Positions 13,645 to 57,662 of a stretch of 64,000 bases of DNA are shown one piece after another. Position 1 is the stretch's first letter; every line of letters begins with the position of its first letter. The stretch comes from Candidatus Avilachnospira sp. (GTDB taxonomy: Bacteria > Bacillota > Clostridia > Oscillospirales > Oscillospiraceae). The stretch lies in the NCBI GenBank assembly GCA_045580485.1, contig JAZNNW010000129.1, positions 723-64,722 on the forward strand, in the 5' to 3' direction. Made by a program: the position numbers and the translations under genes. Under the pieces are notes generated by a model, which saw only the letters and a program-made list of their open reading frames with translations, did no database searches and was not told where the DNA came from.

Positions 13645-14985
13645 ATGAGAAGAAAAAAGCATATTTTGATCTTGGCAGCGGCCCTTTTCTGTGCACTCTT
13701 ATGCACAGGCTGCGTTGGTCAGCCGGCAGATACTCTGTATGCTCTGCCCAGACAGCCCGATGAGTATTATGAGCTGCAAAGCGCCATCGATCAGGTGCTG
13801 GGCACCGGCGCATCCTACTCCGGCCCCTTGACCGGCTCCAATCAGCAGGCGGTACAGCTTGCGGATCTGGATGGAGACGGACAGGACGAAGCCATTGTTT
13901 TTGTGAAGGTGGCCGGTCCTAAGGCCTTGAAGGCCTATATCTTTGACAGCGAGCAGGACGGCACCTATCAAAACACAGCCGTGATCGAAGGGGACGGCAG
14001 TGCCTTCGACTCTGCCGACTATGTGCAGATCGATGGAGAGCCGGGGCTGGAGATCATTGTAGGCCGCCAGCTCAGCGAGCAGATATCCCAGTCCCTTGGT
14101 GCTTATGCTTATCGGGAAGGTCGGTTGGTGGAACTGATGACTGCCAACTATGCCGAGTATACGGCGGTGGATCTGGACGGCGATGACTGCCGGGATATTT
14201 TCATTCTTCGGCAGGAGGTCGATGACCGCACCGATGCGGCAGAGTTATACCGCTACGAAAACGGGCGGATGGTTCGGGAACCGGAAGTGAGCCTTTCCAC
14301 CGGTGCAAAAGAGATCAAACGCATGGTCACCGGTTATGTCTCTCCCGGTGTTCCGGCTGTATTCGTAGCCAGTACTTATAGCCAGGAAGAGATCGTTACG
14401 GATATTTTCGCATTCCTGGACGGAGCGTTCCGCAACATTTCCACCAATGCCGAGACCGGACTCAGCGCACAGACTGTCCGAAATTACAATGTCTATGCGG
14501 CAGATATCGACAAAGACGGGCTGGTGGAGCTGCCGACGCCGGTGGCACTGCCCAGCACCCTTGCCACGGAAGAGACCTTCTGGGTCATCGACTGGTTCAA
14601 TCTGAATGTGGACGGACGGCGCGTGACAAAAATGACCACCTTCCACAGTTATCAGGATGGCTGGTATCTGGAGCTGCCGGAAAGCTGGCATGATAAAATG
14701 ACCGTATCCCGTACAGTTACGGATCTGGATGTCCATGGATACACCTTCTCCAAATGGAACGGACGGGGCGCTGCTACCGAGGAGATTTTTACGGTCTATG
14801 CCTTTACCGGTGAAAACCGGTTGGAGCGTGCAGAGACAGCAGGCTGCTTCCTTCTGGCCGAAAAGGGCGAAACGGCCTATGCAGCTTCCTTTGGAAACTG
14901 CCCCTGGGCAAAAGAACTGACTGAAAATGATTTGCAAGCCATGTTCCACTTCATTCAGGTGGACTGGAACAGCGGTGAAATATAA
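13645..14985 (+). CDS. Lipoprotein with FG-GAP/VCBS-like Asp-rich repeats, function unknown
   Basis: Start reset to ATG 13645 (RBS AAAGGAG). Signal peptide plus lipobox LLCTGC; repeated DLDGDGQDE / DLDGDDCRD / DIDKDGLVE motifs. Confidence 0.7.
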   Translation: MRRKKHILILAAALFCALLCTGCVGQPADTLYALPRQPDEYYELQSAIDQVLGTGASYSGPLTGSNQQAVQLADLDGDGQDEAIVFVKVAGPKALKAYIFDSEQDGTYQNTAVIEGDGSAFDSADYVQIDGEPGLEIIVGRQLSEQISQSLGAYAYREGRLVELMTANYAEYTAVDLDGDDCRDIFILRQEVDDRTDAAELYRYENGRMVREPEVSLSTGAKEIKRMVTGYVSPGVPAVFVASTYSQEEIVTDIFAFLDGAFRNISTNAETGLSAQTVRNYNVYAADIDKDGLVELPTPVALPSTLATEETFWVIDWFNLNVDGRRVTKMTTFHSYQDGWYLELPESWHDKMTVSRTVTDLDVHGYTFSKWNGRGAATEEIFTVYAFTGENRLERAETAGCFLLAEKGETAYAASFGNCPWAKELTENDLQAMFHFIQVDWNSGEI

Positions 14986-29084: not shown

Positions 29085-29437
29085 TGGTGGAGATGATGGG
29101 AATCGAACCCATGTCCGAAAATAACTTGACAGGACTTTCTTCGGGCGGAGTTTGTTATTTAAATTCCCTTACCATGGCGTGAACAAACACACTCCACAGC
29201 TTGGTAGAGTCATTATGCATGGGCGAGTCAACTCTTTCCCGCCGCACGGTCACCACTCAAATCACACCCAAGCCCGGCTCGTGGTCCTTCCGGGGAGGAT
29301 GGGCCGCTAATTAAGCAGCAGCCAGAACAGAGTTATTTCTGTCAGTTAATTTTAAAAGAATTGCCCGGTTTAAAGAGGTCAGACACCTCTGCCCGCTTAT
29401 CCAGCCTCACTATCCCCGTCGAAACCAGTGCATCCCC
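29085..29437 (-). ncRNA. ssrA: tmRNA (SsrA)
   Basis: 5' GGGGAUGCACUGGUUUCGACGGGG and 3' GGACAUGGGUUCGAUUCCCAUCAUCUCCACCA give an acceptor stem with G3:U. The internal tag frame ends ...AAT AAC TCT GTT CTG GCT GCT GCT TAA (..NNSVLAAA). smpB lies upstream on the same strand. Confidence 0.93.
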
Positions 29438-33563: not shown

Positions 33564-34724
33564 TCAGCGATTTGCGGCAATCTTTGCGTGCGCTTTTTCG
33601 GCGGCAACATAGCTGGAATGGGTGTAGGTGTTGAGTGTAGTATAAGCATCAGCGTGTCCCATAAGGTATTGCAGGTTTTTGATCTCCATTCCCGCATTTG
33701 CCATCTCAGTACAAAAGGTATGGCGCAACACATGAGGCGTAATTGAAGGTAATTTGTCATCGTGACTCTTATTGTAGTTGTCGATGATCCGCTTCATTGC
33801 GTGTTCCAAATGTCCTGCAACTTTCGGTTTTCCGTCCTTGTCCAAGAAGAGAAAACCAGAATGCCCATTTATCAGCATTTCGACCTTCGGTGTCTTGCGG
33901 TTTTGAATCACATTCTGAAATGCCTGATACACTGCACCATCCATCGGAACATAGCGTTCTCCACTGTCAGTTTTGGGTTTTTCAATATAATACTCACAGT
34001 TTCGGGTGCGTGTGAGCTGCCGCTCTACTCTGATTCTGCGTTCTTTGAAGTCAATATCCGACTTAGTAAGGCCGTACAATTCAGAGATTCTAAGGCCAGT
34101 CCCAAGCAGTATAATGATTTCGTCATAGTATCTTCTGCGGCATTTATCGCCTAAGACATATGCCAGATACTTTTCCTTTTCCTCTTGGCTGAGAGCCTTG
34201 CGGGTTACAGAATCATTAGGGACAACATCAACCACACGGAAAGAAAATGGATTGCGGCGAACAATGTCATCCTCAACCGCCATCTCAAACGCTGGTCTAA
34301 GTACGCCTCGTACTGTGGTTATGGAACTGTACTTATACCCATCATCATGCAGTTTTATAAACCACTGCTTTGCATCAGAAGGCTTTATGTCCTTTATCTG
34401 ACGATAGGCAAAATCCTCCTTCTTCAGAAGGTTGAGTACAAAATTATATCCAACCTTGGTATTATAGCGTACACCCTGACGCTGAGGAATGTAGCGTTCC
34501 ACCAATGCAAGCACAGTAATTGATCCTGCTGCATAGTCAATACCGTCCTGAAGGTCACGCTGAATCAGTTGCTCCTTTTCTCGCAATTCGGTTAGTGTCT
34601 GAGCGTAGATACATTTCCGATTACCCCGATTGTCCATGTAGCGGTACATATATCTGCCGTCAGAACGATAGCTTTCACCGTCTTTTAGAATCCTTCCTTT
34701 TTTATCCTTGCGCTTTTCAGACAA
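33564..34724 (-). CDS. int: Tyrosine site-specific integrase (Tn916 Int-like), element A
   Basis: 386 aa with an N-terminal arm-binding-like domain, TGLRISEL (Arg), HVLRHTF (HxxR), and LMGHADAYTTLNTYTH (His..Tyr). TTG start after AAAGGAGAG. Confidence 0.9.
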   Translation of the reverse strand: MSEKRKDKKGRILKDGESYRSDGRYMYRYMDNRGNRKCIYAQTLTELREKEQLIQRDLQDGIDYAAGSITVLALVERYIPQRQGVRYNTKVGYNFVLNLLKKEDFAYRQIKDIKPSDAKQWFIKLHDDGYKYSSITTVRGVLRPAFEMAVEDDIVRRNPFSFRVVDVVPNDSVTRKALSQEEKEKYLAYVLGDKCRRRYYDEIIILLGTGLRISELYGLTKSDIDFKERRIRVERQLTRTRNCEYYIEKPKTDSGERYVPMDGAVYQAFQNVIQNRKTPKVEMLINGHSGFLFLDKDGKPKVAGHLEHAMKRIIDNYNKSHDDKLPSITPHVLRHTFCTEMANAGMEIKNLQYLMGHADAYTTLNTYTHSSYVAAEKAHAKIAANR

Positions 34725-38369: not shown

Positions 38370-39200
38370 TTAACCAATAATCAAGTCAACAGCTTTGGAA
38401 GCTGCGCCGCTGGCTTGTACGATCATTCGTTTATCATTTTTCAATGCACTCAACCAGCTTTGGACATATGCGGCATTGTTACGCAGTGATTTTTTCGTTT
38501 CAATGCCTGTGTAGTTTAGAAGGGCGGCGGCTCCGATCTCTGCAACCAATTCTTCTTTGCTATACTCAGCATTGCCGAAATGCGCTGTTGCCTTCAGACG
38601 ATTTAGGCGGCTGTAATGACCTGTGCTGTGCGCCAGTTCATGAAAGGCTGTGCTAAAATACTCTGACACGCTGTTAAATTGCTCTCTAAGCGGCAAAACT
38701 ACGCAATCTCTTGACGGACTATAATAGGCTTCATCGCCCCGCTGATGACGAATTGCAAGGTTCACCCGCTGGCAGTAATCAGAGATAATATGGTCGGCGG
38801 CGGGATGGGTGATCTCTATCGTTTGCCGCTGCTGTAACTCAATGCCTTCGCACTGATCCACATGAAAGACACTGTAATATTTAAGCATTGGAATTGTTTT
38901 ATCAATCGGCTGTCCTACTTCGTCCTGCTCAGTAACCTTGACTTGTTTCCAGAATACTACAATCTGCGCTTTTTCGTCCTTGCGAACATGACCGCCTTTT
39001 GCCAATACCTGATTATAGGTGTAATATTCTCCGGGCTTGCCCAATAGCATTTGATTCAGCAAGCTATATGCTTTACCTGTTGCACCGCTGATTGCGCCGC
39101 TCTGTGTGCCTGTCCACGGCTTTTCCCATGGAATTACACCTTTTTCCAACTGCCCTATGATCCTATCTGTAATAACACTGTAAATATCGAAATTAGCCAT
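38370..39200 (-). CDS. ardC: ArdC-like antirestriction protein (ssDNA-binding N-domain + zincin metalloprotease)
   Basis: N-terminal IPWEKPW and YSVFHVDQCEGI; HExxH = FHELAHSTGH. Confidence 0.85.
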   Translation of the reverse strand: MANFDIYSVITDRIIGQLEKGVIPWEKPWTGTQSGAISGATGKAYSLLNQMLLGKPGEYYTYNQVLAKGGHVRKDEKAQIVVFWKQVKVTEQDEVGQPIDKTIPMLKYYSVFHVDQCEGIELQQRQTIEITHPAADHIISDYCQRVNLAIRHQRGDEAYYSPSRDCVVLPLREQFNSVSEYFSTAFHELAHSTGHYSRLNRLKATAHFGNAEYSKEELVAEIGAAALLNYTGIETKKSLRNNAAYVQSWLSALKNDKRMIVQASGAASKAVDLIIG

Positions 39201-40003: not shown

Positions 40004-40129
40004 AAGTTCGTATAATTCCAATAATACGAACAGCAAAATCCAGTAATTTTGGAATATTTCCATAATCAACAGAATTTTACGAACTATTACTCGGAAAAAT
40101 ACGAACTTTTCAAAGATGGGGGCGGGAAC

Positions 40130-40693
40130 ATGAACAAGAAAACTGTGGCACTAACAACAGAAAAATATAGAGAAATAATTGATACAATGCGCTGCGGCTT
40201 TTGTGGTTGTCGTCCTAATGATCGAATTGCAACGGCTCTTGTGCTGGAAGGGAATCTTGGTATCAGAATCAGCGATATACTCAAGTTGCACCCGTGTGAT
40301 ATTGTGCGGGATGGTGATAGATACCGCCTTGAGATCACCGAACAGAAAACAGGGAAAAGCAGAGTGTTTACAGTTCCGCTTGTAATCCACCAGTATATTG
40401 AAAACTATTGCTTGCGTAATGGTATAGGCCGCAATGATTTGATATTTCCCATATCAGAAAGAGCAGTACAAAAACAACTAAAGATCGTTTGTGATTACCT
40501 CGGCTTTGAGGGTATCAGCACACACAGCTTCCGCAAATGGTATGCAACAGAGATTTATAAGGCAAACGATTATGATATTTCCCTTGTTCAGCGTTTGCTT
40601 CAGCACAGTAGCGCCGCTGTGACGCAAAAATATATTGGTATTGAACCGCAGAGAATCGAACAGGCAATTTCTAACCATGCGTTATTGATGTAG
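40130..40693 (+). CDS. Short (187-aa) tyrosine recombinase, catalytic domain only (FimB/FimE-sized)
   Basis: GIRISDIL (Arg), HSFRKWYAT (HxxR), LQHSSAAVTQKYI (His..Tyr). Start ATG 40130. Confidence 0.75.
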   Translation: MNKKTVALTTEKYREIIDTMRCGFCGCRPNDRIATALVLEGNLGIRISDILKLHPCDIVRDGDRYRLEITEQKTGKSRVFTVPLVIHQYIENYCLRNGIGRNDLIFPISERAVQKQLKIVCDYLGFEGISTHSFRKWYATEIYKANDYDISLVQRLLQHSSAAVTQKYIGIEPQRIEQAISNHALLM

Positions 40694-44413: not shown

Positions 44414-44456
44414 AGTGTCGTAAAAGTGTCGTAAATTCGAGAGTGTTTACGACACT
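44414..44456. repeat. AGTGTCGTAAA 11-mer: two tandem direct copies plus one inverted copy
   Basis: Copies at 44414-24 and 44425-35, with the inverted copy at 44446-56 overlapping the int stop. Candidate arm-type sites for integrase B. Confidence 0.55.
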
Positions 44457-45685
44457 CTTTTTTTACGCGGCAGACGAACATTCTCCTGTGGCAGAGAACC
44501 GATCTCCAACATCTCTTTCTGGGCATCTTCGTAGCCGATATGGGTGTAGGTGTTCAGGGTAACACCAATGTCGCTGTGGCCCATAATGTACTGCAATGTC
44601 TTGGGATTCATACCGGATTTCGCTGCGTTTGAACAGAAGGTGTGCCTGCATACGTGGGGAGTGATTTTGGGCATCTGCACCTTGTAGATGCTGTTGTACT
44701 TGTCGCAGATATGCTGAAAGTACTTCTCCCAATGCAGTGCCACCATGGGCATCCCGTTCTTATCCAGATAGAGGAAACGGCTTTTACCGCCGATGATGGG
44801 TTCTCTTTTCTGCTTCTTTCGGTTTGCGATAATGGTCACAAAGCAGTCCCGCACTTCCGGCGTCATGGGCACCATTCGAGTTCCGCAACTGGTCTTGGTC
44901 GGCTCAATGAGATACTTCATATCACGGGTGCGCTGCAGCTGATGATCGACAATAATGCGATTGTTTTCAAAGTCCACATCGTCAACAGTCAAGCCTACAA
45001 ATTCGGAGATGCGCAGCCCCGTCTTGAAGAGAATGAAAATCCCTTCGTAGTACTTGCAGAAATGCGGGTCATTCCGGACAAACTCCAGAAAGGCTCGTTC
45101 CTGCTGCCGGCTGATGGCTTCGCGGGTCACGCTGTCGTTGACCACAACCGTGTGCAACTGGAACTCAAAGGGGCTCTTCGCGAGCCAATCGTTCTCGACA
45201 GCCATCCGAAAAGCCGGTCTTACCACACCGCGGATGGAGTAGATTGTGCTGTAACCGCGCCCATCCTCCTGCAGCTTGATCAGCCATGCTTTGGCATCGT
45301 AGATCTTGACCTTGTCGATCCGTCTTTGGCCAAAGGGTTCCTTCTTGAGGATGTTCACCACAAAATTGTAATTGGCCTGTGTGTTGTGGCGCACACCTCG
45401 TTTTTGGCTGAGGTATCTCTGTACAAGCTCCAGCACCGTCAGATCTCCGCCGCCCGGGATAAGATTGTTGCTCAAGTCCTTCTGGATCTGCTGTTCTTTT
45501 TCTCTGAGAGAAAGGTCGTTCCGCTTACCTTTGGGTACTGTATCAGATGGTGTCAACTTCCAACTGTAAACAGTTCTCCGCTTGCCACCGGCATCCTGAT
45601 ACTTGTATTCGTACTTACCATCCTTGCGCTGGCTCTCTCCGTTCCATAATCTTCGACCCTTATGGTCTTTTCTTATTTCGGACAT
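44447..45685 (-). CDS. int: Tyrosine site-specific integrase (Tn916 Int-like), element B
   Basis: 412 aa, colinear with integrase A; TGLRISEF, HVCRHTF, IMGHSDIGVTLNTYTH. ATG 45685 after AAAGGAGA. Confidence 0.9.
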   Translation of the reverse strand: MSEIRKDHKGRRLWNGESQRKDGKYEYKYQDAGGKRRTVYSWKLTPSDTVPKGKRNDLSLREKEQQIQKDLSNNLIPGGGDLTVLELVQRYLSQKRGVRHNTQANYNFVVNILKKEPFGQRRIDKVKIYDAKAWLIKLQEDGRGYSTIYSIRGVVRPAFRMAVENDWLAKSPFEFQLHTVVVNDSVTREAISRQQERAFLEFVRNDPHFCKYYEGIFILFKTGLRISEFVGLTVDDVDFENNRIIVDHQLQRTRDMKYLIEPTKTSCGTRMVPMTPEVRDCFVTIIANRKKQKREPIIGGKSRFLYLDKNGMPMVALHWEKYFQHICDKYNSIYKVQMPKITPHVCRHTFCSNAAKSGMNPKTLQYIMGHSDIGVTLNTYTHIGYEDAQKEMLEIGSLPQENVRLPRKKRVS

Positions 45686-45776
45686 CAATGTCTCCTTTCT
45701 TAGGGAAAAGAGCCGAGCTATGATGTGTTTACTATATCACATATCCGGCTTATTTTCTACATGGGAGTTTGGTCTT

Positions 45777-46354: not shown

Positions 46355-47224
46355 TTATTGGCTCCCGGAATGGACAGGATAGGTTTTCAGCAGATCATCA
46401 ATGGGTACTTCCAGAAGCTCAGAAATCTTTTGATAGATGGTGACAGGACAAGAACGGACTCCCTTTTCATAAAGACACAGATGGTTTTGCAAAATATTCA
46501 GCATTTCTGCCAGTTGAGTTTGGGTCAAATTACGTTGCTGTCGGTGGTAGGTAATGCCACAGATATCGGTGCTTCTGGGTGTCATGGAGCAAGTGTAATT
46601 GCTGGGATAGATCTGCAGAGGACTCATGGTGGCAAAATCCAAAACATCCAGCTGCTGGTTAGGCTGTCCCCAGTTGGAGAAACGGTAGATCAGATAAGAC
46701 TTCCCCAACTGGGTCACCTTTTTGGCAGTATCATGTTCACGACTGGTAAGGGTAAAGTCGGTATCCGAAGGTCCTTCTGTAGTTTTGACTTCAATAAAGA
46801 TCGGTTTGGCATTTTCGTCAAAGGAAAGAATATCATAACCGGGGGAGTGCGTTCGCAGCTTGTAGTAGGGCAGTACCAGATGGGAAAGGGTGGGGGAAAT
46901 CCTGGTGACTCTTTCTTGTTCCATGCGAAGCGCTTCATCTTCACCATTACGACCGATCTTCGAACGAGCACCTTCCTTACACTTGCAATACGGACGATGA
47001 GGATGGGTGTCAAAGAAAGACAAGGGGACAGTGGTGAAATCGTTGGTAACCAGCGTATGGACGGGAACATCCAATACGGCAGCCAGCCGTCTGTATTTCT
47101 CGATACTCCCATAGGGGGGACGGGACTCCATTTCGCTGAGATCGGCCTGTGTGATGTTTGCCTGCTTGGCCAAGGTCACTTGGTTGATGCCCAGATACTC
47201 TCGAAGAACTGTAATGATGTGCAT
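46355..47224 (-). CDS. HTH(XRE)-DUF3883-HTH(XRE) protein
   Basis: N-terminal HTH (INQVTLAKQANITQADLSEME). Central DUF3883-like nuclease-fold core (IGRNGEDEAL...GYDILSFDENAKPIFIEVKTT...FTLTSREHDTA...YLIYRF). C-terminal HTH (LTQTQLAEMLNILQNHLCLYEKG). ATG 47224 after GGAGG. Confidence 0.7.
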   Translation of the reverse strand: MHIITVLREYLGINQVTLAKQANITQADLSEMESRPPYGSIEKYRRLAAVLDVPVHTLVTNDFTTVPLSFFDTHPHRPYCKCKEGARSKIGRNGEDEALRMEQERVTRISPTLSHLVLPYYKLRTHSPGYDILSFDENAKPIFIEVKTTEGPSDTDFTLTSREHDTAKKVTQLGKSYLIYRFSNWGQPNQQLDVLDFATMSPLQIYPSNYTCSMTPRSTDICGITYHRQQRNLTQTQLAEMLNILQNHLCLYEKGVRSCPVTIYQKISELLEVPIDDLLKTYPVHSGSQ

Positions 47225-47245
47225 ATGTATACCTCCAAATAAGTT

Positions 47246-47346
47246 GACTGACAAATATAGAATAATGTATGTCGACTGATTTTGCAAGATGGCATAATAC
47301 ACAAATTAAAAGGCGACTGACACAACATGTTGCATAAGTTGACTTA
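47246..47346 (+). promoter_or_regulatory. Iterated GACTGA/GACTTA motifs in a divergent intergenic region
   Basis: tTGACTGAca (47246-51), tcGACTGAtt (47274-79), gcGACTGAca (47315-20) and tTGACTTAtt (47341-46), between the DUF3883 gene and the small + strand gene. Confidence 0.4.
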
Positions 47347-47892: not shown

Positions 47893-48714
47893 ATGCCGAG
47901 AAAAAAGAAAAAAACATCTTCTGAAACAAGAGCAGTAGAGATTTTTGCACTTAGATTCCCTCTCTCCAATAGCGTTTATGTGGGTCGTTCCACATGTAGA
48001 AAGCACTGGGATCTTTACGATTATTACTACAAAGGAAGGAATATAACGACGAAAAAAGCGGTAGAACAGCACATTGCAAAGGATGTATACCCTCAATTAT
48101 TCATTCTGGATACGGTGGAAAAAACAAAATATGCTGCGTATCAAGAGCGTCTTGCATGGTATAAATACTTTATACAGCATGGTTTTTCTGTTGAATGTGA
48201 GCCTTCAACAAAGGATATTCTTTCTGATTTTGACGGAAAAGCAGAGGAAATTTATCAGAAAATTAAAGATTTTCCACTTGATTCGATTATTGCGCCGGAG
48301 AAAGATGTCGCTGCTGGATATAGAAGAAAAAAGCCTGACCAAACAGTTCCAAAAGAAAATCCGAGGTATAATGTCAGATTTACAGCCAAAGAGTATGAGA
48401 TTGTTAAAGCCAAAGCAGCAGAATTCGGAATGTCGATTAATGATTTTTTGGTTTCATCGGCAATAAAATCTATTATTAACAGAATAGAGTTTGATGTCTA
48501 TCCGATTATAGAATGTACGAATAAAATAGACCAGATCAGCTGTAAATTGGATGGTTTAATCAGTACAATCATTCTATCTAGGGTGTATTTTCCTGCTGAT
48601 ATTGCAGAAATAAAGGATATTGAAAATAAGCTTATCGAGACAATCGATGGCCTTAAAGGTTACTTAATAGATGAGGTGTACGATATTGAACGCAAGGTGA
48701 ATAGGTACAGGTAA
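47893..48714 (+). CDS. MobC-like relaxosome accessory protein with a GIY-YIG-like N-terminal region
   Basis: RHH segment VRFTAKEYEIVKAKAAEFGMSINDFL. The N-terminal FALRF..SVYVGRS...AAYQERLAWYKYF resembles GIY-YIG, but only weakly. Confidence 0.55.
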   Translation: MPRKKKKTSSETRAVEIFALRFPLSNSVYVGRSTCRKHWDLYDYYYKGRNITTKKAVEQHIAKDVYPQLFILDTVEKTKYAAYQERLAWYKYFIQHGFSVECEPSTKDILSDFDGKAEEIYQKIKDFPLDSIIAPEKDVAAGYRRKKPDQTVPKENPRYNVRFTAKEYEIVKAKAAEFGMSINDFLVSSAIKSIINRIEFDVYPIIECTNKIDQISCKLDGLISTIILSRVYFPADIAEIKDIENKLIETIDGLKGYLIDEVYDIERKVNRYR

Positions 48715-48981: not shown

Positions 48982-49869
48982 ATGGAGTACGTATCTGTTG
49001 CCAAAATGGCAGAAATCTGGGAGATTTCCGAACGAAGTGTGCGAAATTATTGTGCCAATGGCAGGATTGATGGAGCAAAGATTATCGGCAAGACTTGGTA
49101 CATTCCGGAGACGGCACAGAAGCCGGAGCGGGTAAATAAGAAAAAGAGTACAGTGACTTTGCTGCAGATCCTTCGGGAACAGAAAGCTGCCAAAATGACC
49201 GGTGGGATTTATCATAAGGTGCAGATCGATCTGACATACAACTCCAATCATATGGAAGGTAGTCGGCTGACGCACGATCAGACTCGGTACATCTTTGAAA
49301 CGAACACCATTGGTTTTGAGAACGAAGCGGTGAATGTGGATGATGTGATCGAAACGGCTAATCACTTCCGCTGCATCGATATGGTGATCGACCAGGCAGG
49401 AAATATGCTGACGGAGAAATTCATCAAGGAGTTGCATGGAACCTTAAAGACGGGTACCAGCGATAGCCGCAAGGATTGGTTTGCAGTAGGCGAATATAAG
49501 AAGTTCCCCAATGAAGTAGGGGGAAGGGTCACTGCGTTACCTGAAAATGTAGCATTCGAAATGCGAAATCTGTTGGGGAACTATAATTCCCTAACGACCA
49601 AGACTTTTGAAGACATTGTAGCCTTCCATGTGGCCTTTGAACGCATCCATCCCTTCCAGGACGGAAATGGCCGCGTGGGCCGTCTGATCCTCTTCAAGGA
49701 ATGTCTGAAGCACAATATCGTGCCGTTTATCATTGAAGATGATCTGAAGCTGTTTTACTACCGTGGTCTGAAGGAATGGGACAACGAAAAGGGCTTCCTT
49801 ATGGATACCTGCCTCACCGCCCAAGACCGCTTCAAGGCATATCTGGACTATTTCAGAATTGCATATTGA
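48982..49869 (+). CDS. Fic/DOC family protein with N-terminal HTH and an internal inhibitory motif
   Basis: Canonical HPFQDGNGRVGR; SNHMEG matches the (S/T)xxxE(G/N) inhibitory helix; N-terminal MerR/Xis-like HTH (VAKMAEIWEISERSVRNY). Confidence 0.88.
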   Translation: MEYVSVAKMAEIWEISERSVRNYCANGRIDGAKIIGKTWYIPETAQKPERVNKKKSTVTLLQILREQKAAKMTGGIYHKVQIDLTYNSNHMEGSRLTHDQTRYIFETNTIGFENEAVNVDDVIETANHFRCIDMVIDQAGNMLTEKFIKELHGTLKTGTSDSRKDWFAVGEYKKFPNEVGGRVTALPENVAFEMRNLLGNYNSLTTKTFEDIVAFHVAFERIHPFQDGNGRVGRLILFKECLKHNIVPFIIEDDLKLFYYRGLKEWDNEKGFLMDTCLTAQDRFKAYLDYFRIAY

Positions 49870-49915: not shown

Positions 49916-49953
49916 GTGCTCATGTGACGCTTTCGCTAACTTCCTACAGGGCG

Positions 49954-50240
49954 TAGGAATGAATGGTGGAGCTGAGGCGTTGATGCTCATTATAGCAAAA
50001 AAGCAAAGATGACGGGACTGGCTAAAATGGCTATAACACCCGACATGATAAGGAAATCCATCGTGCTATTTTTACTGTCCAAAACTGATTTTAGAGGGGT
50101 AAGGGAGGATCATATGAGCAATCGTCCTATCGCCAACACTCAAAATCAGCCCTCTGGATGCCAAAATCTGTTGCTAAAATGGACATTAATCATATACGCA
50201 CATGGGGGACTTGTTGCTAAAATGGGCAATAATGAGGTTC
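49954..50240 (+). repeat. Left copy of the imperfect direct repeat bracketing the WYL cassette
   Basis: Colinear without indels with 57380-57611. By hand count, the first 76 nt (from 49957 / 57383) match at 73 positions. The middle is diverged, and the 3' block TGTTGCTAAAATGGnCA is duplicated in this copy. Confidence 0.85.
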
Positions 50241-50333
50241 CGATCATGCCTGTACTATTTTTTGTGCATAGCATGTTGTATTCTTTTGGACATAGAACCA
50301 ATGAGTCATAAATACAGATGAGAAGGTGATTAT

Positions 50334-50933
50334 GTGGGTTGTATGGTCGAGGCACTGCGAAGCGGCTATCGGATGATAGTTGCATATCTTCGGAGCAACC
50401 GCAAATGGTGCTGGATGACGGTGCTCGCACTTGCAGAAATACTTGTATTCGCGTGTCTGCATACGGACGCTGATCATCATTATGAGATATATTTGGCGGA
50501 GACGATGGGGCAGTACGATGCGTTGCTGGGGCATATATTCTGGGAAAACCTCCGAACTGCCTTGATGACAGTGCTGATTGGCTCGATTCCGTTTGGTATT
50601 GGTATTTTATTTAACTCGTATTTCACATGTTCCGGGTTGGTTGCAACAGCGAAACTGCTGTTGCCCAGAGTCGGTGGGATGAGTCTTCTGCTGAGTGTTG
50701 CACCGCACGGCATTTTTGAAATTCCTGCGATCGTTTTTAGTTTCATACTTTCTGTGCTATGGAGCAGAGCGATCACTTTCGTACTGCTTCGGTTGCGCAG
50801 GGAAAAGTCAAAACTGAAAACAGATTGCAAGTTCCTGTTCCAGGCTGTTGTTTTTGTGTTGATTCCTCTGACTCTGGTTGCTGCCGTAACAGAGACATAC
50901 ATCTCTGCATTGGTTATTGAGATGATAATCTGA
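50334..50933 (+). CDS. SpoIIM/DUF95-like polytopic membrane protein
   Basis: About 5 TM helices with the signature-like APHGIFEIPAIVFSF. GTG start after AGAAGGTGA. Confidence 0.6.
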   Translation: MGCMVEALRSGYRMIVAYLRSNRKWCWMTVLALAEILVFACLHTDADHHYEIYLAETMGQYDALLGHIFWENLRTALMTVLIGSIPFGIGILFNSYFTCSGLVATAKLLLPRVGGMSLLLSVAPHGIFEIPAIVFSFILSVLWSRAITFVLLRLRREKSKLKTDCKFLFQAVVFVLIPLTLVAAVTETYISALVIEMII

Positions 50934-50956: not shown

Positions 50957-50992
50957 CATACACCCTGTACAAATGATTGTACAGGGTGTATG
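50957..50992. promoter_or_regulatory. Perfect 16-bp inverted repeat just upstream of the WYL gene (operator and/or terminator)
   Basis: CATACACCCTGTACAA atga TTGTACAGGGTGTATG, read directly; it ends 24 nt before the WYL ATG. Confidence 0.5.
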
Positions 50993-51015
50993 CTATTATT
51001 ATAGAAAAGGAGGCG

Positions 51016-51981
51016 ATGGCTATGCTGAGCACAAAGGCCAATACCATTTGCATTTTGGAAATTTTGAAGGAATTTTCCGACGAGCAGCACATCTTGACCA
51101 TGAGCGAGATCATTTCCAAAATGAATATCGTTTATGGCTTGAAACTGGATCGTCGAACGGTTTACAGCTCTGTGGCACTGCTGATCGATCTGGGTTATGA
51201 TATTTCTGTTTATGAAGAAAACGGTATCGGTTATTTCTTGCGAAAGCGGGAATTGGAACAATCGGAAGTGTTGCTGTTGACTGATGCGGTGTACTCTTTC
51301 CCGTTTTTGCCTGCCAAGCATTCTGAGCAGCTGATTGCAAAGTTGCAGACCTTCCTCAGTAAGCACCAGCGAAAGAAATACCGCCATCTGACCATTGTCC
51401 GGCAGGAGCATAAAACAGAAAACCGGCAGGTGTTTTTGAATGTGGAACTACTGGATGAAGCCATTTCGGAGAAAAAACAGGTCAGCTTTACTTATTTGGC
51501 CTACGGTGCTGATAAAAAACTCCACCCCAGACGGGAAAAACCTTATACAGTCAACCCCTATGGTATGGTGTATTTGAATGAGCACTATTATCTGGTCTGT
51601 AATCTCAGTAGCTATCCCAATACAAGTCTGTATCGCATCGATATGATGCAGAATTTGATCCAGTTGGACACGCCGTGGGACAGAGAACCCAGCGGAAAAG
51701 AGGAAGTCAGCAATGCGGTTTATGCATTTTCCGGTCAGCCGGAGCGGATTGTCCTGCGCTGCCAAGAAGGATTGATTGGAGATGTGATCGATCAGTTCGG
51801 AACGGAGATCTTTGTCGCACTGGATGGTGACGGCATGCTTTCTGTCAGTTTCAGCGCACCGCCCAGAGGAATCAAATATTGGGCTTTGCAGTATCTGTCC
51901 TATGTAGAAGTCCTTCAGCCCCAGTGGCTGCGAGAAGAGATCGTGGAAAGTGTCAAAAAATGCGTGTATAAATCCTTGTAG
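51016..51981 (+). CDS. WYL-domain transcriptional regulator (wHTH-WYL-C-terminal extension; BrxR/CapW-like architecture)
   Basis: wHTH ILEILKEFSDEQHILTMSEIISKM..LDRRTVYSSVALL; WYL-type strand YTVNPYGMVYLNEHYYLVCN. ATG 51016 after AAAGGAGG. Confidence 0.8.
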   Translation: MAMLSTKANTICILEILKEFSDEQHILTMSEIISKMNIVYGLKLDRRTVYSSVALLIDLGYDISVYEENGIGYFLRKRELEQSEVLLLTDAVYSFPFLPAKHSEQLIAKLQTFLSKHQRKKYRHLTIVRQEHKTENRQVFLNVELLDEAISEKKQVSFTYLAYGADKKLHPRREKPYTVNPYGMVYLNEHYYLVCNLSSYPNTSLYRIDMMQNLIQLDTPWDREPSGKEEVSNAVYAFSGQPERIVLRCQEGLIGDVIDQFGTEIFVALDGDGMLSVSFSAPPRGIKYWALQYLSYVEVLQPQWLREEIVESVKKCVYKSL

Positions 51982-51997
51982 ATAGGAGGGAAAGTGA

Positions 51998-52792
51998 ATG
52001 AAAGAAATAACGCTGAAAGAAACGATTGCCCAGTTAATTGAATCCAATCCAAACACAATCTTTCTGGTGGACGGAGATTCTTTGAGAGGCGATTGTTCAA
52101 AAATTAAGGGGTTCAATCGAGATAAATTTATTTTTGTGCGCGATTACATGGCGGTAGGAACAGCGGCGCCGGAGGTTCTTTCTCCCGAATTTATATCATT
52201 ACGAATAGAGTCACTTTGTGGTCCCTTTGGAAATAAGCTGTATTCAGAAAAAGCCTATGAGCAGGAATGTATCTCCGGACTAAGAAGTCTTGCCCATATG
52301 CCAGCTGCGGAGATTGTGCTGATCCAGTATGATTGTTATGTTTCTCGGATATGGCAGATGACCATGATGGCCTATATTGAACAATTGGGGTGCAGTAATT
52401 GCGTTAAAAGAATATTGTTTTATGATGGGGAGAGGACTTTTGGTGTCAGTCGAATGGATGACATCTCTGTGGAAGGTGCGCACGAAGCATATTGCCGGAT
52501 TGTATGTGAAAAAAAGATGATAGATCTGTCGCAGTATCTGATTTCAGAAGAAGCAGTTGCGTGCTATTTTGATATCAACTCTTCCGATGGGAAACTGCGG
52601 CAATACATCCGAGATGTGAGTTCCGGTTATGACAAGCATGCTTCGGCAACGGGTCAATTTTTATATGATTTTGCAGATTGGGGTTTGGGAGATGGGGAGT
52701 TTATACGAATTGCCTACCAGACACTTTCTGAGGATCCGCGATTTGAGGCCGTGGCGAAAAAGTGGAAAAAATCAATGAAACTATGGTATTAG
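51998..52792 (+). CDS. Hypothetical 264-aa protein
   Basis: AGGAGGG RBS, 16 nt after the WYL stop. The N-terminal TIFLVDGDS...FIFVRDY is faintly LabA/NYN (PIN-like)-like, which is too weak to call. Confidence 0.6.
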   Translation: MKEITLKETIAQLIESNPNTIFLVDGDSLRGDCSKIKGFNRDKFIFVRDYMAVGTAAPEVLSPEFISLRIESLCGPFGNKLYSEKAYEQECISGLRSLAHMPAAEIVLIQYDCYVSRIWQMTMMAYIEQLGCSNCVKRILFYDGERTFGVSRMDDISVEGAHEAYCRIVCEKKMIDLSQYLISEEAVACYFDINSSDGKLRQYIRDVSSGYDKHASATGQFLYDFADWGLGDGEFIRIAYQTLSEDPRFEAVAKKWKKSMKLWY

Positions 52793-52798
52793 AATTCT

Positions 52799-52876
52799 AT
52801 GCTGAGAGATGAGTTTGTTAAAAGTGTCAAAAATTGCGTGTATCATGAAAATACCACAAATAATAGGAAGGTGTAA
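52799..52876 (+). pseudogene. Remnant of the 3' end of a second WYL-regulator gene
   Basis: CTGAGAGATGAGTTTGTTAAAAGTGTCAAAAATTGCGTGTAT matches WYL gene 51928-51969 at 35 of 42 nt by hand count. Peptide LRDEFVKSVKNCVY compares with LREEIVESVKKCVY. Confidence 0.7.
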
Positions 52877-52878
52877 AT

Positions 52879-54000
52879 ATGGAAAAGAATAATCTGTTTC
52901 AATATGCAACAAAAGAGTTGTCGCAAGATGCCTTTTTCTGTTGGCTAATCAATTGGATTAATTATCCTGATGCTCCTATGTATCCTGCAGGAGTAGCGGC
53001 ACTAAATCTATTCCTTGGTAAGAATAAACAGAAGGATTATACTGACGTGGAAGTTTTACGCCAGTATAAGAAAATCGATGTGCTGGTTCTGTTCAACAAA
53101 AAGTATGCGTTGATAATTGAAGACAAAACCAATACAACGGAACATGGTGAGCAAATTGCTCGATACAAGAATCTTTTGCAAGAAGATTATCCTGACAGAG
53201 AAATCTTTACCGCTTATGTCAAAACTGGTATTATGTATGATGAAGATGCTAGAATTATCAATAAAGTAGATGCCGTTGTGACACTGAACGATTTACTCAA
53301 TACCTTTAATCCGATCAAAGAAGATGCAGCTTCTGAGATTTTCAGCGATTATTTAGAATATATTTCAACGATTGCTGAGGAACGGCGTAAAATTAATCGG
53401 CAGATTGAGACTGGCGAATACAGCCGCGCATTAGATACCTATTTTGGGCAGTTCTCTTTTATGGACCGGATTTTTGCGAATCGTACAAAAGGAACGGAAA
53501 TTGGAAAAACATATACCGTTGAGGATAAAAATCCTCCTGTGCTGATCGATCAAGTTTATGCCGGTACCAACAATGGTGGTACGCCGTGGATACAGTACTG
53601 CTTCTGGGGACAGGCTTACCCCGAACAGATCAAGCAAGTTGGGACTATTGAGTATCAATATTTGTTCTGGAGAATTGATTGCAATTGGGTTCGGAGAGAT
53701 AAGAGCGATCCTAATAGCGAATATGATCCGGAGTATTACATCGCATTGAGGCACTACGATGAAAACACCAAGGTGAACGACTACACTCGTCAGAGGAAAA
53801 AGACAGCATATTACACCTTCCGGAATATCTGCAAAGAAATTGAAAATGGGAATCCTGCCATTTTTAAGCCTATCGGAACACGAGAAAACTATAAAGAAAG
53901 TGACCTGTTGTTTATTCCGCTTAACCGGATTGAAACGATGACTTTCGACGAGGTGAAAAGACTTCTGACGGAAATCACAACTAAAATTTTAATGAATTGA
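52879..54000 (+). CDS. PD-(D/E)XK-like nuclease-fold protein (373 aa)
   Basis: N-terminal ELSQDAFFCW, then IDVLVLF..(7)..ALIIEDKT fits the D...ExK pattern. The large C-terminal domain is unknown. Confidence 0.6.
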   Translation: MEKNNLFQYATKELSQDAFFCWLINWINYPDAPMYPAGVAALNLFLGKNKQKDYTDVEVLRQYKKIDVLVLFNKKYALIIEDKTNTTEHGEQIARYKNLLQEDYPDREIFTAYVKTGIMYDEDARIINKVDAVVTLNDLLNTFNPIKEDAASEIFSDYLEYISTIAEERRKINRQIETGEYSRALDTYFGQFSFMDRIFANRTKGTEIGKTYTVEDKNPPVLIDQVYAGTNNGGTPWIQYCFWGQAYPEQIKQVGTIEYQYLFWRIDCNWVRRDKSDPNSEYDPEYYIALRHYDENTKVNDYTRQRKKTAYYTFRNICKEIENGNPAIFKPIGTRENYKESDLLFIPLNRIETMTFDEVKRLLTEITTKILMN

Positions 54001-54005
54001 TGAAG

Positions 54006-54033
54006 CCCCCTGTGCAGAGATTTGCACAGGGGG
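54006..54033 (+). terminator. Hairpin CCCCCTGTGCA-gagatt-TGCACAGGGGG (copy 1)
   Basis: 11-bp stem followed by tgcTTTT; the identical stem-loop recurs at 55686-55715. Confidence 0.7.
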
Positions 54034-54080
54034 TGCTTTTATGATAGTTGTAGCCGATTAAACAAAAGGGGGCCTCTATC

Positions 54081-55679
54081 ATGCAGGAAGCGGTCAGCCG
54101 CATGGAAGTTACATCTAAATATCAAATAAGACATCACTCTGTATCTATGGATGCTGATGAAGCATTGGAGTTTATGCGTTCCGATTTCTTGGGCTTATAT
54201 ACAACTGCTCGCAGAGAAGAGGACGGCTCTATAGCGCTTCAGGTAACCTCTTTGATCTGCCCCTATTGTGGGAGTAAGGAACAGTTAAAGGCATCGGGAA
54301 AGATTACCAATGAACATCTGGAACTTATGGAAAAATGGGCAGATCCGCAGCTTATCATGCCGGATGATATTCCGAAAGAAATCATCTTTCTGAATACGGA
54401 TATTGAAGAATTCCGATGCCCTCACTGTGGCGTTTCTTCCGGTAGAAAGGATAATCGCACAACCATTTCCGTAATTAGGAGAAAGAAATCCGTTCTGCTC
54501 AGATGTGAAGTCCATGATCTGTCAAGAATTCTTACGCTCCCCCATATGCCGGAACAGACTTTTTCGCTGAAATTACCGCTATACGAGCAGTTGGAATTTA
54601 ACATTGGAAAGGGCAGGGTGTGCGTTCGGATATCAGATGACGAGGGGAATGTTTTGAGAACACAGGATGTTACAAATTCTCCAAGGTGGTTATCCAAAAC
54701 CGCACTTTCTGAGTGGTTTGATAAAAGTGCGGAACTTCGGGGGATAATTCTTGCGGAGTTTCAAACGGCATCAAAAGAAGTAGTCCCCTTCAACCTGTAT
54801 AACATTACGCTGGAAGACCTTTTGTTCTTTACGCGATTCATTGGCTATGAACAGTCATTTTATGATGCCATACCCTACGAACTGGATACCCACAAGCTAG
54901 ATGATTCTTTTGCATGTTTGCAGGAACTCCATACGAAAAAGTCTGCCATTGCGTATTTGCGGTCTTTTTCGTTGGCAAAATTCAAATCGATAAGAAAACA
55001 AATTCTGGAAAGTCCTGGACTGTTGTTTTATTTGCCCCAGTGCGAGCTGCTGTTGCAGGCCTTTGGCGATGTGAATCTTTTTAGGAATATTTTAACTGGC
55101 AATAATATATTTTATATTTTATCGGCACTGAAGCAGAGCCCTGTGCTTGCAGAGTTTCTGCTGGATTATTGCAAAGTGATGGGTGCGGCGGCTCTTTGCA
55201 AGAGCGTTATGAGTGAATGGTATTGGTCGAGACAATACGGGGCGCACTACTGCTCTCTGAACGCCGAAGCAAGGCGAGTGGAACAGTATAAATGGAGGCA
55301 TGAAAGGAATTGCATCGAAGATTACGAAGTTTATCCCTATTCTTTGCCGCAAAGGTGTAAACCGCCTAAGGATGTGTCTTGTGTAATTGATGGCTTTACG
55401 TTTCTGCTGTTGGGCAATACTGCAGCATGCCGGCGTGCAGGGAGAGAATTGCATAATTGTTTACAGCGTGTGACTTATGAATCGTCGGTGATTATTGCGG
55501 TTTGCTGCGGAAAAGTGACCGTAGCCGCGATCGATGTTTTCCAAAATGAGATCAGGCAGGCTTATACATTTCATAATGGATGTATACGGAGCATAGACGG
55601 ATTGGAGCCTGCAATTGCCAAATGGGCAGAAAGAAATTCTCTGAGCTTTTGTTCAAAAGATTTTACCGAGGATTGGTAA
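54081..55679 (+). CDS. Zinc-ribbon + PcfJ-like domain protein (532 aa)
   Basis: CPYCG ... CPHCG pairs in the N-terminal part. The C-terminal AGRELHNCLQRVTYESSVIIAVCCGKVTVAAIDVFQNEIRQAYTFHNG resembles the PcfJ-like core (E..HC...Y...I...N). Confidence 0.6.
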   Translation: MQEAVSRMEVTSKYQIRHHSVSMDADEALEFMRSDFLGLYTTARREEDGSIALQVTSLICPYCGSKEQLKASGKITNEHLELMEKWADPQLIMPDDIPKEIIFLNTDIEEFRCPHCGVSSGRKDNRTTISVIRRKKSVLLRCEVHDLSRILTLPHMPEQTFSLKLPLYEQLEFNIGKGRVCVRISDDEGNVLRTQDVTNSPRWLSKTALSEWFDKSAELRGIILAEFQTASKEVVPFNLYNITLEDLLFFTRFIGYEQSFYDAIPYELDTHKLDDSFACLQELHTKKSAIAYLRSFSLAKFKSIRKQILESPGLLFYLPQCELLLQAFGDVNLFRNILTGNNIFYILSALKQSPVLAEFLLDYCKVMGAAALCKSVMSEWYWSRQYGAHYCSLNAEARRVEQYKWRHERNCIEDYEVYPYSLPQRCKPPKDVSCVIDGFTFLLLGNTAACRRAGRELHNCLQRVTYESSVIIAVCCGKVTVAAIDVFQNEIRQAYTFHNGCIRSIDGLEPAIAKWAERNSLSFCSKDFTEDW

Positions 55680-55685
55680 GGTATG

Positions 55686-55715
55686 CCCCCCTGTGCAGAG
55701 ATTTGCACAGGGGGG
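55686..55715 (+). terminator. Hairpin CCCCCCTGTGCA-gagatt-TGCACAGGGGGG (copy 2)
   Basis: Same stem-loop as 54006-54033, directly after the PcfJ-like stop. Confidence 0.65.
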
Positions 55716-55775
55716 TGTGTTATTTATATAAAGGGAAACGTAGATGAAATCCGAATTATATATGAGGTGATTTGT

Positions 55776-55910
55776 ATGAGCGATGGTAAGAAAGTTCTTT
55801 TGATTGTGGGTGCGGTTGTAATTGTTGCGGTGATTGTTTTGTCGATGATATTTGGCTCTGCGGTCTTTGACATTTTTGTTGCGGCGGTCACTTTGGTACA
55901 GTTTGTATAG
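55776..55910 (+). CDS. 44-aa single-pass membrane peptide
   Basis: MSDGKKVLLIVGAVVIVAVIVLSMIFGSAVFDIFVAAVTLVQFV; GAGGTGA RBS 5 nt upstream. Confidence 0.45.
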   Translation: MSDGKKVLLIVGAVVIVAVIVLSMIFGSAVFDIFVAAVTLVQFV

Positions 55911-55960: not shown

Positions 55961-56005
55961 AACCTCCTATCGGATGAACAATTATAATTCATCTGATAGG
56001 AGGTT
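55961..56005. terminator. 18-bp hairpin between convergent genes
   Basis: AACCTCCTATCGGATGAA / TTCATCTGATAGGAGGTT (one G:U). Confidence 0.65.
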
Positions 56006-57362: not shown

Positions 57363-57379
57363 TAAATTCTCACGTTTTG

Positions 57380-57625
57380 TAAGAATGAATGGTGGAGCTG
57401 AGGCGTTAATGCTCATTATAGCAAAAAAACAAAGATGACGGGACTGGATAAAATGGCTGCCACAGCCGACATGGCAAGGAAATCCAATCAGCCATTTTCA
57501 CCGCCTTAAACCCATTTTGGAGGGGCAGGAGAGGTGCGCAAGCCCAACCATCCCGCCGCCAACACCCAAATCCAACCCTCTGACCACCAAAATCTGTTGC
57601 TAAAATGGGCAATAACGATTACCAA
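57380..57625 (+). repeat. Right copy of the imperfect direct repeat bracketing the WYL cassette
   Basis: See 49954-50240. It begins GAATGAATGGTGGAGCTGAGGCGTT and ends CTGTTGCTAAAATGGGCAATAA. Confidence 0.85.
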
Positions 57626-57662
57626 ATCCTGTCTGCCATAAACATTTTGACGGGTCAGTTGA

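Follow-up and report, generated by a model that had tools for sequence, protein, structure and literature searches.

Gene content of the array

The window examined here is a 64,000 nt stretch of contig JAZNNW010000129.1 from Candidatus Avilachnospira sp. It contains an array of five closely spaced genes on one strand, which encode a regulator with WYL and WCX domains, a 264 aa protein (g2), a PD-(D/E)XK nuclease of 373 aa (g3), a PcfJ-like protein of 532 aa (g4) and a 44 aa hydrophobic peptide (g5). Three copies of a palindromic junction, J1, J2 and J3, are interspersed with these genes (Table 1). The regulator, the three larger proteins and the small transmembrane peptide had already been listed in a first-pass annotation made from the sequence alone, and their strand, spacing and positions agree with it. 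Related loci retrieved for comparison with the window are labelled L001-L102.

Table 1. Coordinates of the array, its junctions and the surrounding features within the window
Feature	Position (nt)	Strand	Remarks
J1 palindrome, CATACACCCTGTACAA-ATGA-TTGTACAGGGTGTATG	50957-50992	+	Arms 16+16 nt, 100 % complementary; 4 nt loop
WYL-WCX regulator, 321 aa open reading frame (ORF)	51016-51981	+	Pfam WYL PF13280, 2.5e-10; WCX PF25583, 1.3e-7
g2, 264 aa	51998-52792	+	Between regulator and g3
Relic of WYL 3′ end with WYL-to-nuclease intergenic region and ribosome-binding site	52801-52875	+	75 nt between g2 stop and g3 start
g3, 373 aa, PD-(D/E)XK nuclease	52879-54000	+	Pfam PDDEXK_4, 7.8e-5; 23.1 bits against a cutoff of 22.3
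J2 GC-clamped hairpin	54005-54034	+	Core TGTGCA-N6-TGCACA at 54011-54028; T-tract; TATGAT at 54040-54045, 11 nt past core
g4, 532 aa	54081-55679	+	Four-Cys zinc ribbon in beta-rich N-terminal domain, helical middle, PcfJ-like C-terminal domain
J3, third palindrome copy	55680-55721	+	Core at 55692-55709, then weaker -10-like TATTTA/TATATA
g5, 44 aa, hydrophobic single-transmembrane ORF	55777-55910	+	GAGGTG ribosome-binding site; unit 3 cargo
Hairpin AACCTCCTATCGGATGAA...TTCATCTGATAGGAGGTT	55961-56005		Between g5 and the convergent HAD-like gene; read by eye, unscored in the terminator scan
Two Tn916-type integrases, a third short integrase-like ORF, ArdC and NikA-like gene	33564-34724, 38370-39200, 40049-40693, 44447-45688, 47893-48714	-, -, +, -, +	
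Double helix-turn-helix (HTH) and NOV_C protein	46355-47302	-	PDC-S36-like, 5e-15 (PADLOC)
HTH-Fic protein	48982-49869	+	Matches PADLOC candidate single-gene system PDC-S04, 1.8e-111
Direct repeat, left copy, 237 nt	49953-50189	+	80 % identity to right copy
SpoIIM-like membrane gene	50334-50933		Directly 5′ of J1
HAD-like protein, 302 aa	56098-57006	-	Matches PADLOC candidate PDC-S34, 6.8e-60; convergent with g5
Direct repeat, right copy, 237 nt	57379-57615	+	Coincides with right border of the low-GC island

Palindromic junctions

J1 had been singled out in the first-pass annotation as a perfect 16 bp palindrome, and its coordinates, arms and complementarity were confirmed. Within it lies the core TGTACA-N6-TGTACA (50966-50983), followed by TATTAT at 50994-50999, 10 nt past the core. 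The operator role suggested for it appears very good on comparative grounds: the core is kept 5′ of WYL orthologs down to 58 % protein identity, and lies 53-90 nt 5′ of all those examined (L001, L007, L010-12, L018-20, L022-38 and L102). It is likewise present between the nuclease gene and g4 in every locus that carries the trio of WYL, nuclease and g4 genes (L001, L010-12, L018-20, L022-38 and L102), and in L013 it is located in the divergent WYL/g2 promoter region. The motif is restricted to WYL-linked loci.

The consensus core is TGTRCA-N6-TGYACA, with a broader recognition form of T(G/A)T(A/G)CA-N6-TG(T/C)A(C/T)A, and J2 and J3 have an identical 28-mer in common. The extended pattern CTGTRCA-N6-TGYACAG occurs four times in the window against 0.00 expected from shuffles, with three of the four occurrences inside the array. 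The fourth, at 13689-13708, is within a 470 aa ORF, lacks a -10 box and is probably a chance match. A variant, TGGGCA-N6-TGCACA, was seen at 5513-5530 of L018-L020, 461 nt 5′ of the WYL gene and near a divergent 154 aa gene of unassigned function.

A clean -10 box follows the core at J1 (offset 10 nt) and J2 (offset 11 nt), and a weaker one is present at J3. TAnnnT, in the forms TATAAT, TATGAT and TATTAT, stands exactly 11 nt past the core in 33 of 74 contexts found with the relaxed pattern, among them nearly all of the operon-linked ones; at J1 the offset is 10 nt in both the window and L102. No -35 hexamer was found at operon-linked core sites. The right half-site was considered as a -35 box and rejected, since the spacer would be just 12 nt.

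All three palindromes of the window also score as terminator-like in a terminator/promoter scan, and intergenic copies carry a CCCC/GGGG clamp and a T-tract. Over 16 junctions, 10 of 16 stem pairs are altered on both sides, and none of 500 shuffles matched the observed covariation score. Across loci with protein identities of just 33-60 %, the sequence of the apical 6+6 core is kept but that of the outer stems varies. In the copies that precede the WYL genes of L001, L010-12 and L018 the core is found without an extended stem.

Each junction is read as a compact putative terminator, operator and promoter that closes one unit and opens the next. With hairpins or T-tracts, cores and -10 boxes at these positions, the array is predicted to split into three transcription units: WYL-g2-g3, g4 and g5. 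J1 is proposed to be the WYL operator and the promoter of unit 1, and may double as a terminator hairpin for the SpoIIM-like gene 5′ of it. J2 is proposed to terminate unit 1 and to drive the g4 unit as its operator and promoter, and J3 to terminate the g4 unit and serve as the promoter of unit 3. The regulator stands at the head of the genes, as first described, but at least three units are predicted, each starting at its own palindrome. The hairpin 3′ of g5 is likely to mark the end of the operon. A weaker operator-like sequence, TGTACT-N6-TGTGCA (50251-50268), with TATTCT 10 nt further on, lies 5′ of the SpoIIM-like gene, which might be an additional member of the WYL regulon.

The cargo of unit 3 is variable. 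In L102 (5278-5394), J3 and the leader after it agree with those of the window as far as the start codon, beyond which the cargo differs: a short ORF comes first, then a protein starting MTKNVGLFFYVNGEFLFHSC that is clipped by the contig end. g5 itself has no family match in Pfam, PADLOC, NCBIfam or PHROGs. A tblastn match to g5 in L013 was rejected as a homolog, as it is merely the translated palindrome.

The WYL regulator

Both domains of the regulator exceed their Pfam cutoffs, WCX with 32.3 bits against 23.9. PADLOC WYL models match it as well (1e-26), all of them generic. The true start is probably the ATG at 51022, 7 nt after AAGGAGG. The N-terminal 90 residues are the best-conserved part of the protein; the PADLOC model PDLC01457 aligns from residue 27, and no Pfam HTH domain matched at E 0.1. 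Orthologs in the related loci are 58-95 % identical and are associated with varied cargo, including WG-repeat proteins, MoxR with DUF2201, an ADP-ribosylglycohydrolase and AAA ATPases.

Searching PDB with the regulator sequence alone gave nothing useful. With a profile built from 13 orthologs, DriD (7u02, 7tzv and 8tp8) was matched at about 1e-5 and PafBC at 3e-3, the only other matches being unnamed WYL proteins. At the E 0.01 threshold of this search neither BrxR nor CapW was matched, and the BrxR/CapW-like label originally given to the regulator was replaced by one pointing to DriD and PafBC. At DriD promoters, according to a cryo-EM study, the DriD site lies where a -35 element would be, at a fixed spacing to a recognizable -10 box and with no -35 motif (PMC13004042). 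The predicted promoters of the window have the same layout, which by analogy favours an activator triggered by single-stranded DNA (ssDNA). Sequence and predicted promoter layout both place the regulator nearer to DriD and PafBC, which are activators, than to BrxR and CapW, which are repressors. Defence systems are also controlled by CapW-type repressors that reportedly sense ssDNA (PMC11662680), so a repressor may also fit.

The nuclease and its slot

The PD-(D/E)XK core that had been proposed for the 373 aa protein is borne out by the PDDEXK_4 match and by motif residues that are invariant across 44 homologs: E13, Q16, D17, D67 (in IDVLV) and E81/D82/K83 (in IIEDK). More than 264 full-length homologs of g3 were found. 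Features particular to the family are an N-terminal NNLFxYATKELSQDA motif and the entire C-terminal half. The PADLOC candidate PDC-S26 matches g3 at 4e-14, over residues 49-179 of 373 only, and five other family members align with it over approximately 40-60 residues. Identification of g3 as PDC-S26 was rejected, the match being confined to the nuclease core (about 50-130 aa, depending on the member). Searches of PDB by sequence and by profile gave nothing useful for g3.

Exchange of the nuclease is evident between loci. In L102 a nuclease of unrelated type, Mrr_cat, replaces g2 and g3 between a regulator and a g4 that are 95 and 69 % identical to those of the window, with the same three junctions. 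Between L001 and L010-12 the flanking genes are 83-96 % identical, compared with just 34.5 % for the g3 alleles. These comparisons indicate that the occupant of the nuclease slot is exchanged while the backbone stays nearly the same.

The PcfJ-like protein

Two CxxC pairs and a PcfJ-like C-terminus had been noted in g4, and both are upheld by its relatives. Across 75 of them three of the cysteines (C60, C63 and C113) never vary, and the fourth, C116, is kept in at least 90 %. The g4 of the window has no PcfJ match in Pfam at E 0.1, only weak zinc-ribbon matches; Pfam PcfJ (PF14284) is matched by 25 of the 75 relatives (best 3.1e-7), and the C-terminus of g4 matches phrog_16315. For an AlphaFold2 (AF2) model with a predicted local distance difference test score (pLDDT) of 78.7, the top Foldseek matches in BFVD are phage PcfJ-like proteins of 475-549 aa (E 8.5e-14 to 1e-4, probability 0.99-1.00). 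Both sequence and model indicate that the PcfJ-like assignment holds for the whole of g4, not just its C-terminus.

A hidden Markov model (HMM) search at E 1e-3 recovered 671 family representatives, counted at 50 % identity and nearly all full-length at about 540 aa; a word search gave 8. No match to g4 was found in PDB by sequence, profile or fold (Foldseek, E 0.001), and in PADLOC the sole match was PDC-M14A, at E 0.006 with no stretch passing. PcfJ is named after a conjugative-plasmid gene. g4 carries the motif NCL where canonical PcfJ presumably has HCV. A distant relative of g4 (27 % identity) adjoins a gene for a VirD4/TraG-type coupling protein, without a WYL gene. A literature search found no described function for any PcfJ-like protein.

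The 264 aa protein

g2 had been described as a protein with no clear domain, and no family was matched in Pfam, PADLOC, NCBIfam or PHROGs. The faint NYN/PIN-like N-terminus also attributed to it was rejected, given that the Asp of LVDGD is not conserved and a PDB fold match is absent. The AF2 model of g2 has a pLDDT of 88.9 and matched no PDB fold (Foldseek, E 0.001); searches of PDB by sequence and profile were equally empty. Only 10 homologs were found, with one locus among 185,579 species genomes. They occur always in loci with the WYL operator, often beside WG-repeat proteins. g2 is missing from the Solobacterium and L102 trios and from most trios overall.

The 75 nt between g2 and g3 are 84 % identical to the WYL 3′ end of the window itself (51927-51969) and 87 % identical to L102 2320-2395. 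This segment therefore duplicates the WYL 3′ end and the adjoining intergenic region, which points to an ancestral backbone of WYL, nuclease and g4 into which g2 was spliced by recombination within the WYL 3′ end. By this comparison g2 is a later-inserted, optional module and the segment is the scar of its insertion. At L005 8817-11428 (and L006), a g2 locus retains only the first 21 g3-like codons, followed by an RVT_1 reverse transcriptase (303 aa) and a 311 aa ORF; a retroelement may have inserted into or replaced the nuclease slot here.

Recurrence in related loci

A survey of 92 loci that contain g3 gave 25 clusters at 80 % identity. The WYL-g3-g4 trio is present in 13 of the 25 clusters, wherever the flanks permit testing, and WYL and g3 occur without g4 in three. 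In contigs of Solobacterium moorei (L018-20) the three genes are found in the same order, at 59, 40 and 33 % identity, respectively, and are set among housekeeping genes. The order of nuclease, J2 and g4 is maintained from 100 % down to 33 % g4 identity. Whether the genes co-occur in other genomes had been posed as a decisive question by the first-pass annotation. The trio of WYL, nuclease and PcfJ-like genes does recur, in gut and oral bacteria, but not as one fixed system of four or five genes: g2 is optional, the g3 family also stands alone in many genomes and the nuclease slot is swappable.

Relatives of g4 adjoin WYL genes in five architectures, represented by the window, L001/L010-12, L018-20, L002/3 with L021, and L102. 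In L001/L010-12 the order is WYL, g2, ADP-ribosylglycohydrolase, small genes, g3, g4, a 125 aa gene, MoxR, DUF2201, AAA and WG repeat. The MoxR of these loci is of the AAA_3 type and the DUF2201 protein is VWA/metallopeptidase-like; the block from g4 through the 125 aa gene and MoxR to DUF2201 is flanked by two junction palindromes. Further cargo in L001 (3792-13867) and L010-12 includes a CbbX-like AAA ATPase and a tubulin/FtsZ-like protein with an N-terminus resembling that of the WG-repeat protein.

In L002 (8001-16751) and L021 (3-6075), g4 relatives of 28-29 % identity are divergent from a distant WYL gene (30 %). The distant WYL gene of L002/3 heads an operon of a 1149 aa SNF2/ResIII-type helicase, MoxR and DUF2201, and that of L021 is followed by a 1017 aa gene of unassigned family. 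The MoxR and DUF2201 proteins of L002 are 52-57 and 36 % identical to those 3′ of g4 in L001/L011, which suggests that MoxR and DUF2201 form a second recurrent partnership of g4. FicTA adjoins the locus in L102, and McrBC is near the locus in L007. A profile scan of viral contigs found no relatives.

Genomic context

The array had been placed on an AT-rich, repeat-flanked mobile island with shuffled modules, and each part of that description is supported by the GC profile, the integrases, the 237 nt repeats and the slot swapping. GC content sinks from about 0.53 to about 0.40 in the stretch from approximately 33 to 58 kb of the window. The integrases, the ArdC gene (ArdcN with a zincin peptidase) and the NikA-like gene lie on this stretch (Table 1). 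Together these genes suggest tandem integrative mobilizable elements. A tmRNA (transfer-messenger RNA) gene is located a few kb from them, at 29085-29437 on the reverse strand. Neighbours on both sides of the array match candidate defence genes in PADLOC, namely the HTH-Fic, HAD-like and NOV_C proteins. Judged by this predicted gene content, the whole stretch around the array behaves as a defence island. No BREX (bacteriophage exclusion) or CBASS (cyclic-oligonucleotide-based anti-phage signalling system) genes were found among the neighbours with PADLOC.

The two copies of the 237 nt repeat enclose the SpoIIM-like gene, the WYL operon and the HAD-like gene. A fragment of the repeat is also found in L102, 5′ of VbhA-Fic. 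A short unit, TGTTGCTAAAATGG, is present in three copies, and further repeat positions are 50169-50252 and 57595-57635. An Rfam scan over 30-64 kb gave zero matches, so that known RNA families do not account for the repeat. An att-like end of an accreted element is one possible identity, a leader or RNA of unfamiliar type another.

Conjugation machinery had been named as a match that would speak against a defence reading. No genes for a type IV secretion system (T4SS), a relaxase or replication lie within the operon or adjoin it, either in the window or in other loci with the trio, L102 and Solobacterium included. A link of this kind is seen in the distant g4 relative beside the VirD4/TraG-type gene.

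Relation to known systems

Named systems were compared through PADLOC-DB v2.0.0 (2023), in which no component of the locus was fully matched by a system model; that the genes correspond to no named system agrees with the first-pass annotation. A literature search likewise found no description of WYL, a PDDEXK_4 nuclease and a PcfJ-like protein in combination.

DriD of Caulobacter and PafBC of mycobacteria resemble the regulator in their WYL-WCX domains (the best PDB matches), in a site at the -35 position, in the fixed -10 spacing and in serving several promoters with one regulator. They differ in that their regulons for repair or division are chromosomal, whereas the window has a contiguous array of swappable cargo on a mobile island in a Firmicute-type host, with the sites inside terminator hairpins. 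That WYL proteins act as switches for immune genes is an established general concept (PMC9122601 and PMC11662680). BrxR and CapW share with the regulator the order of a winged HTH (wHTH; putative in the regulator), WYL and WCX domains, a palindrome at their own promoter and a place in front of variable, defence-like cargo on islands. Unlike these, the window has no BREX or CBASS genes, has a promoter layout that fits an activator better and has several internal operators rather than one.

At the level of single proteins, PDC-S26 and other single-gene PDDEXK_4 candidates share the catalytic core, a length of about 400 aa and solo relatives with g3. In contrast to them, g3 of the window is under predicted WYL control, is paired with g4 and has its own N-terminal motif and C-terminal half. 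The PcfJ-like (PF14284) proteins of plasmids and phages are of the same fold and length class as g4, whose family differs from canonical members in lying consistently beside WYL genes and, in the trios, beside a nuclease. Integron arrays also have variable cargo that is split by conserved imperfect palindromes and exchanged between similar backbones. Unlike integrons, the junctions of the window carry putative promoters and terminators, and exchange looks like homologous recombination at the junctions and at the WYL 3′ end. An integron/attC reading was rejected: there is no IntI, the Tn916-type integrases are at least 5 kb away and -10 boxes are present at the junctions. Island modules with a nuclease under a WYL switch are a known theme. 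The effector pair, the multi-copy junctions, the activator-type promoter in a defence-like setting and the fold of g2 look new.

Proposed function and alternatives

With about even confidence, the locus is interpreted as a WYL-switched, modular and inducible array on an integrative mobilizable island that would act as a defence or anti-mobile-element module. In this model a dimer of the wHTH-WYL-WCX regulator would recognize the palindrome at J1, J2 and J3. By analogy with DriD and PafBC, the cue bound by the WYL domain is probably ssDNA or a related nucleic acid, such as arises when a phage replicates, DNA is damaged or a conjugative element is transferred. The regulator would then activate all units jointly, or alternatively repression would be lifted by the same cue. 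The output would be a PD-(D/E)XK nuclease working with its zinc-ribbon PcfJ-like partner, plus accessory modules, and the pair may attack invading or replicating DNA, or kill the infected cell. A defence function is suggested by the context of the locus. Nuclease swapping bears the signature of an arms race and, together with neighbouring candidate defence genes, is more typical of immunity loci.

Several observations weigh against this interpretation. In L007 and L013 the operons headed by WYL orthologs with this operator contain neither g3 nor g4, and a single WYL clade is common to all trio lineages, so that gene order could be partly inherited, not selected. Nucleases of the g3 family stand alone in several large clusters, one of them 49 % identical to g3 of the window; g3 would thus need neither g4 nor WYL. 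The PcfJ-like family is carried by phages and is found beside a VirD4/TraG-type gene, which fits an element-serving role. g3 and g4 occupy separate predicted transcription units, which would also fit independent modules. The -10 boxes at J1 and J3 are weaker or offset. Protection, toxicity, DNA binding and induction are predictions from sequence.

A rather less probable explanation, and the one that fares best among the alternatives, is a co-regulated mosaic in which a generic WYL switch controls g2, the nuclease, g4 and g5 as independent cargo, these sharing only portable junctions and being shuffled by recombination at them. Such a mosaic agrees with the presence of a junction and a predicted promoter for every module, the late arrival of g2 and its absence from most trios, the frequent solo occurrence of g3 relatives and the quite different cargo headed by WYL orthologs, as well as with the divergence of cargo after J3 between the window and L102 despite a conserved leader. 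It does not account well for the slot directly 5′ of g4, where a PD-(D/E)XK nuclease is found in every case, including exchanges such as Mrr_cat in L102 and the divergent g3 alleles; random cargo would not predict this, nor the persistence of the nuclease-J2-g4 order from 100 to 33 % g4 identity.

It is rather improbable that the array serves the element itself or a DNA-damage response, with an ssDNA-sensing activator turning on the PcfJ-like protein and nuclease for DNA processing, establishment, anti-defence or repair. The nearest solved relatives of the regulator are DNA-damage-response activators with a matching promoter layout. g4 relatives are found beside a VirD4/TraG-type protein, its structural homologs are annotated in phages and the PcfJ name itself derives from a conjugative-plasmid gene, and PcfJ-like proteins are characteristic of plasmids and phages; ArdC, the NikA-like gene and Tn916-type integrases are present on the island. 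Against such a role, genes for a T4SS, a relaxase or replication are absent from the operon and its immediate surroundings, both in the window and in other loci with the trio, and the Solobacterium trios are set among housekeeping genes. Rapid nuclease swapping and candidate defence neighbours are also more typical of immunity. A damage signal is no argument against defence, since CapW-type defence repressors reportedly sense ssDNA too (PMC11662680).

That the palindromes are intrinsic terminators or repetitive extragenic palindromic (REP)-like repeats only, with no WYL binding, is very improbable: their terminator-like scores, the GC clamps and T-tracts of J2 and J3 and the covarying outer stems would fit, but the apical core is kept at 33-60 % protein identity while outer stems vary, the pre-WYL copies in L001, L010-12 and L018 keep the core without an extended stem, a -10 box at a fixed offset of 10-11 nt is no property of a terminator and the motif is confined to WYL-linked loci.

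Implications

The preferred interpretation, an inducible defence array, can be extended tentatively. The array may be a recombinase-independent, ‘plug-and-play’ immune array in which a portable junction of about 40-60 nt, with terminator hairpin, WYL operator and -10 box in one, would allow any gene to be spliced into an ssDNA-triggered regulon. The nuclease and PcfJ-like protein would then be an undescribed two-component anti-phage or anti-plasmid effector and g2 an accessory protein with a new fold. This extension is doubtful at present; if it is true, it would provide a first function for the widespread PcfJ-like family.

Candidate defence loci of the same general type are numerous. If the trio does work as a defence module, it would extend the repertoire of WYL-switched immunity by a new effector pair and give a first functional handle on a PcfJ-like family of about 670 representatives in plasmids, phages and chromosomes. 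The repeated terminator-operator-promoter junction could serve as a model for how sets of co-induced genes are put together on mobile islands with no recombinase dedicated to the task.

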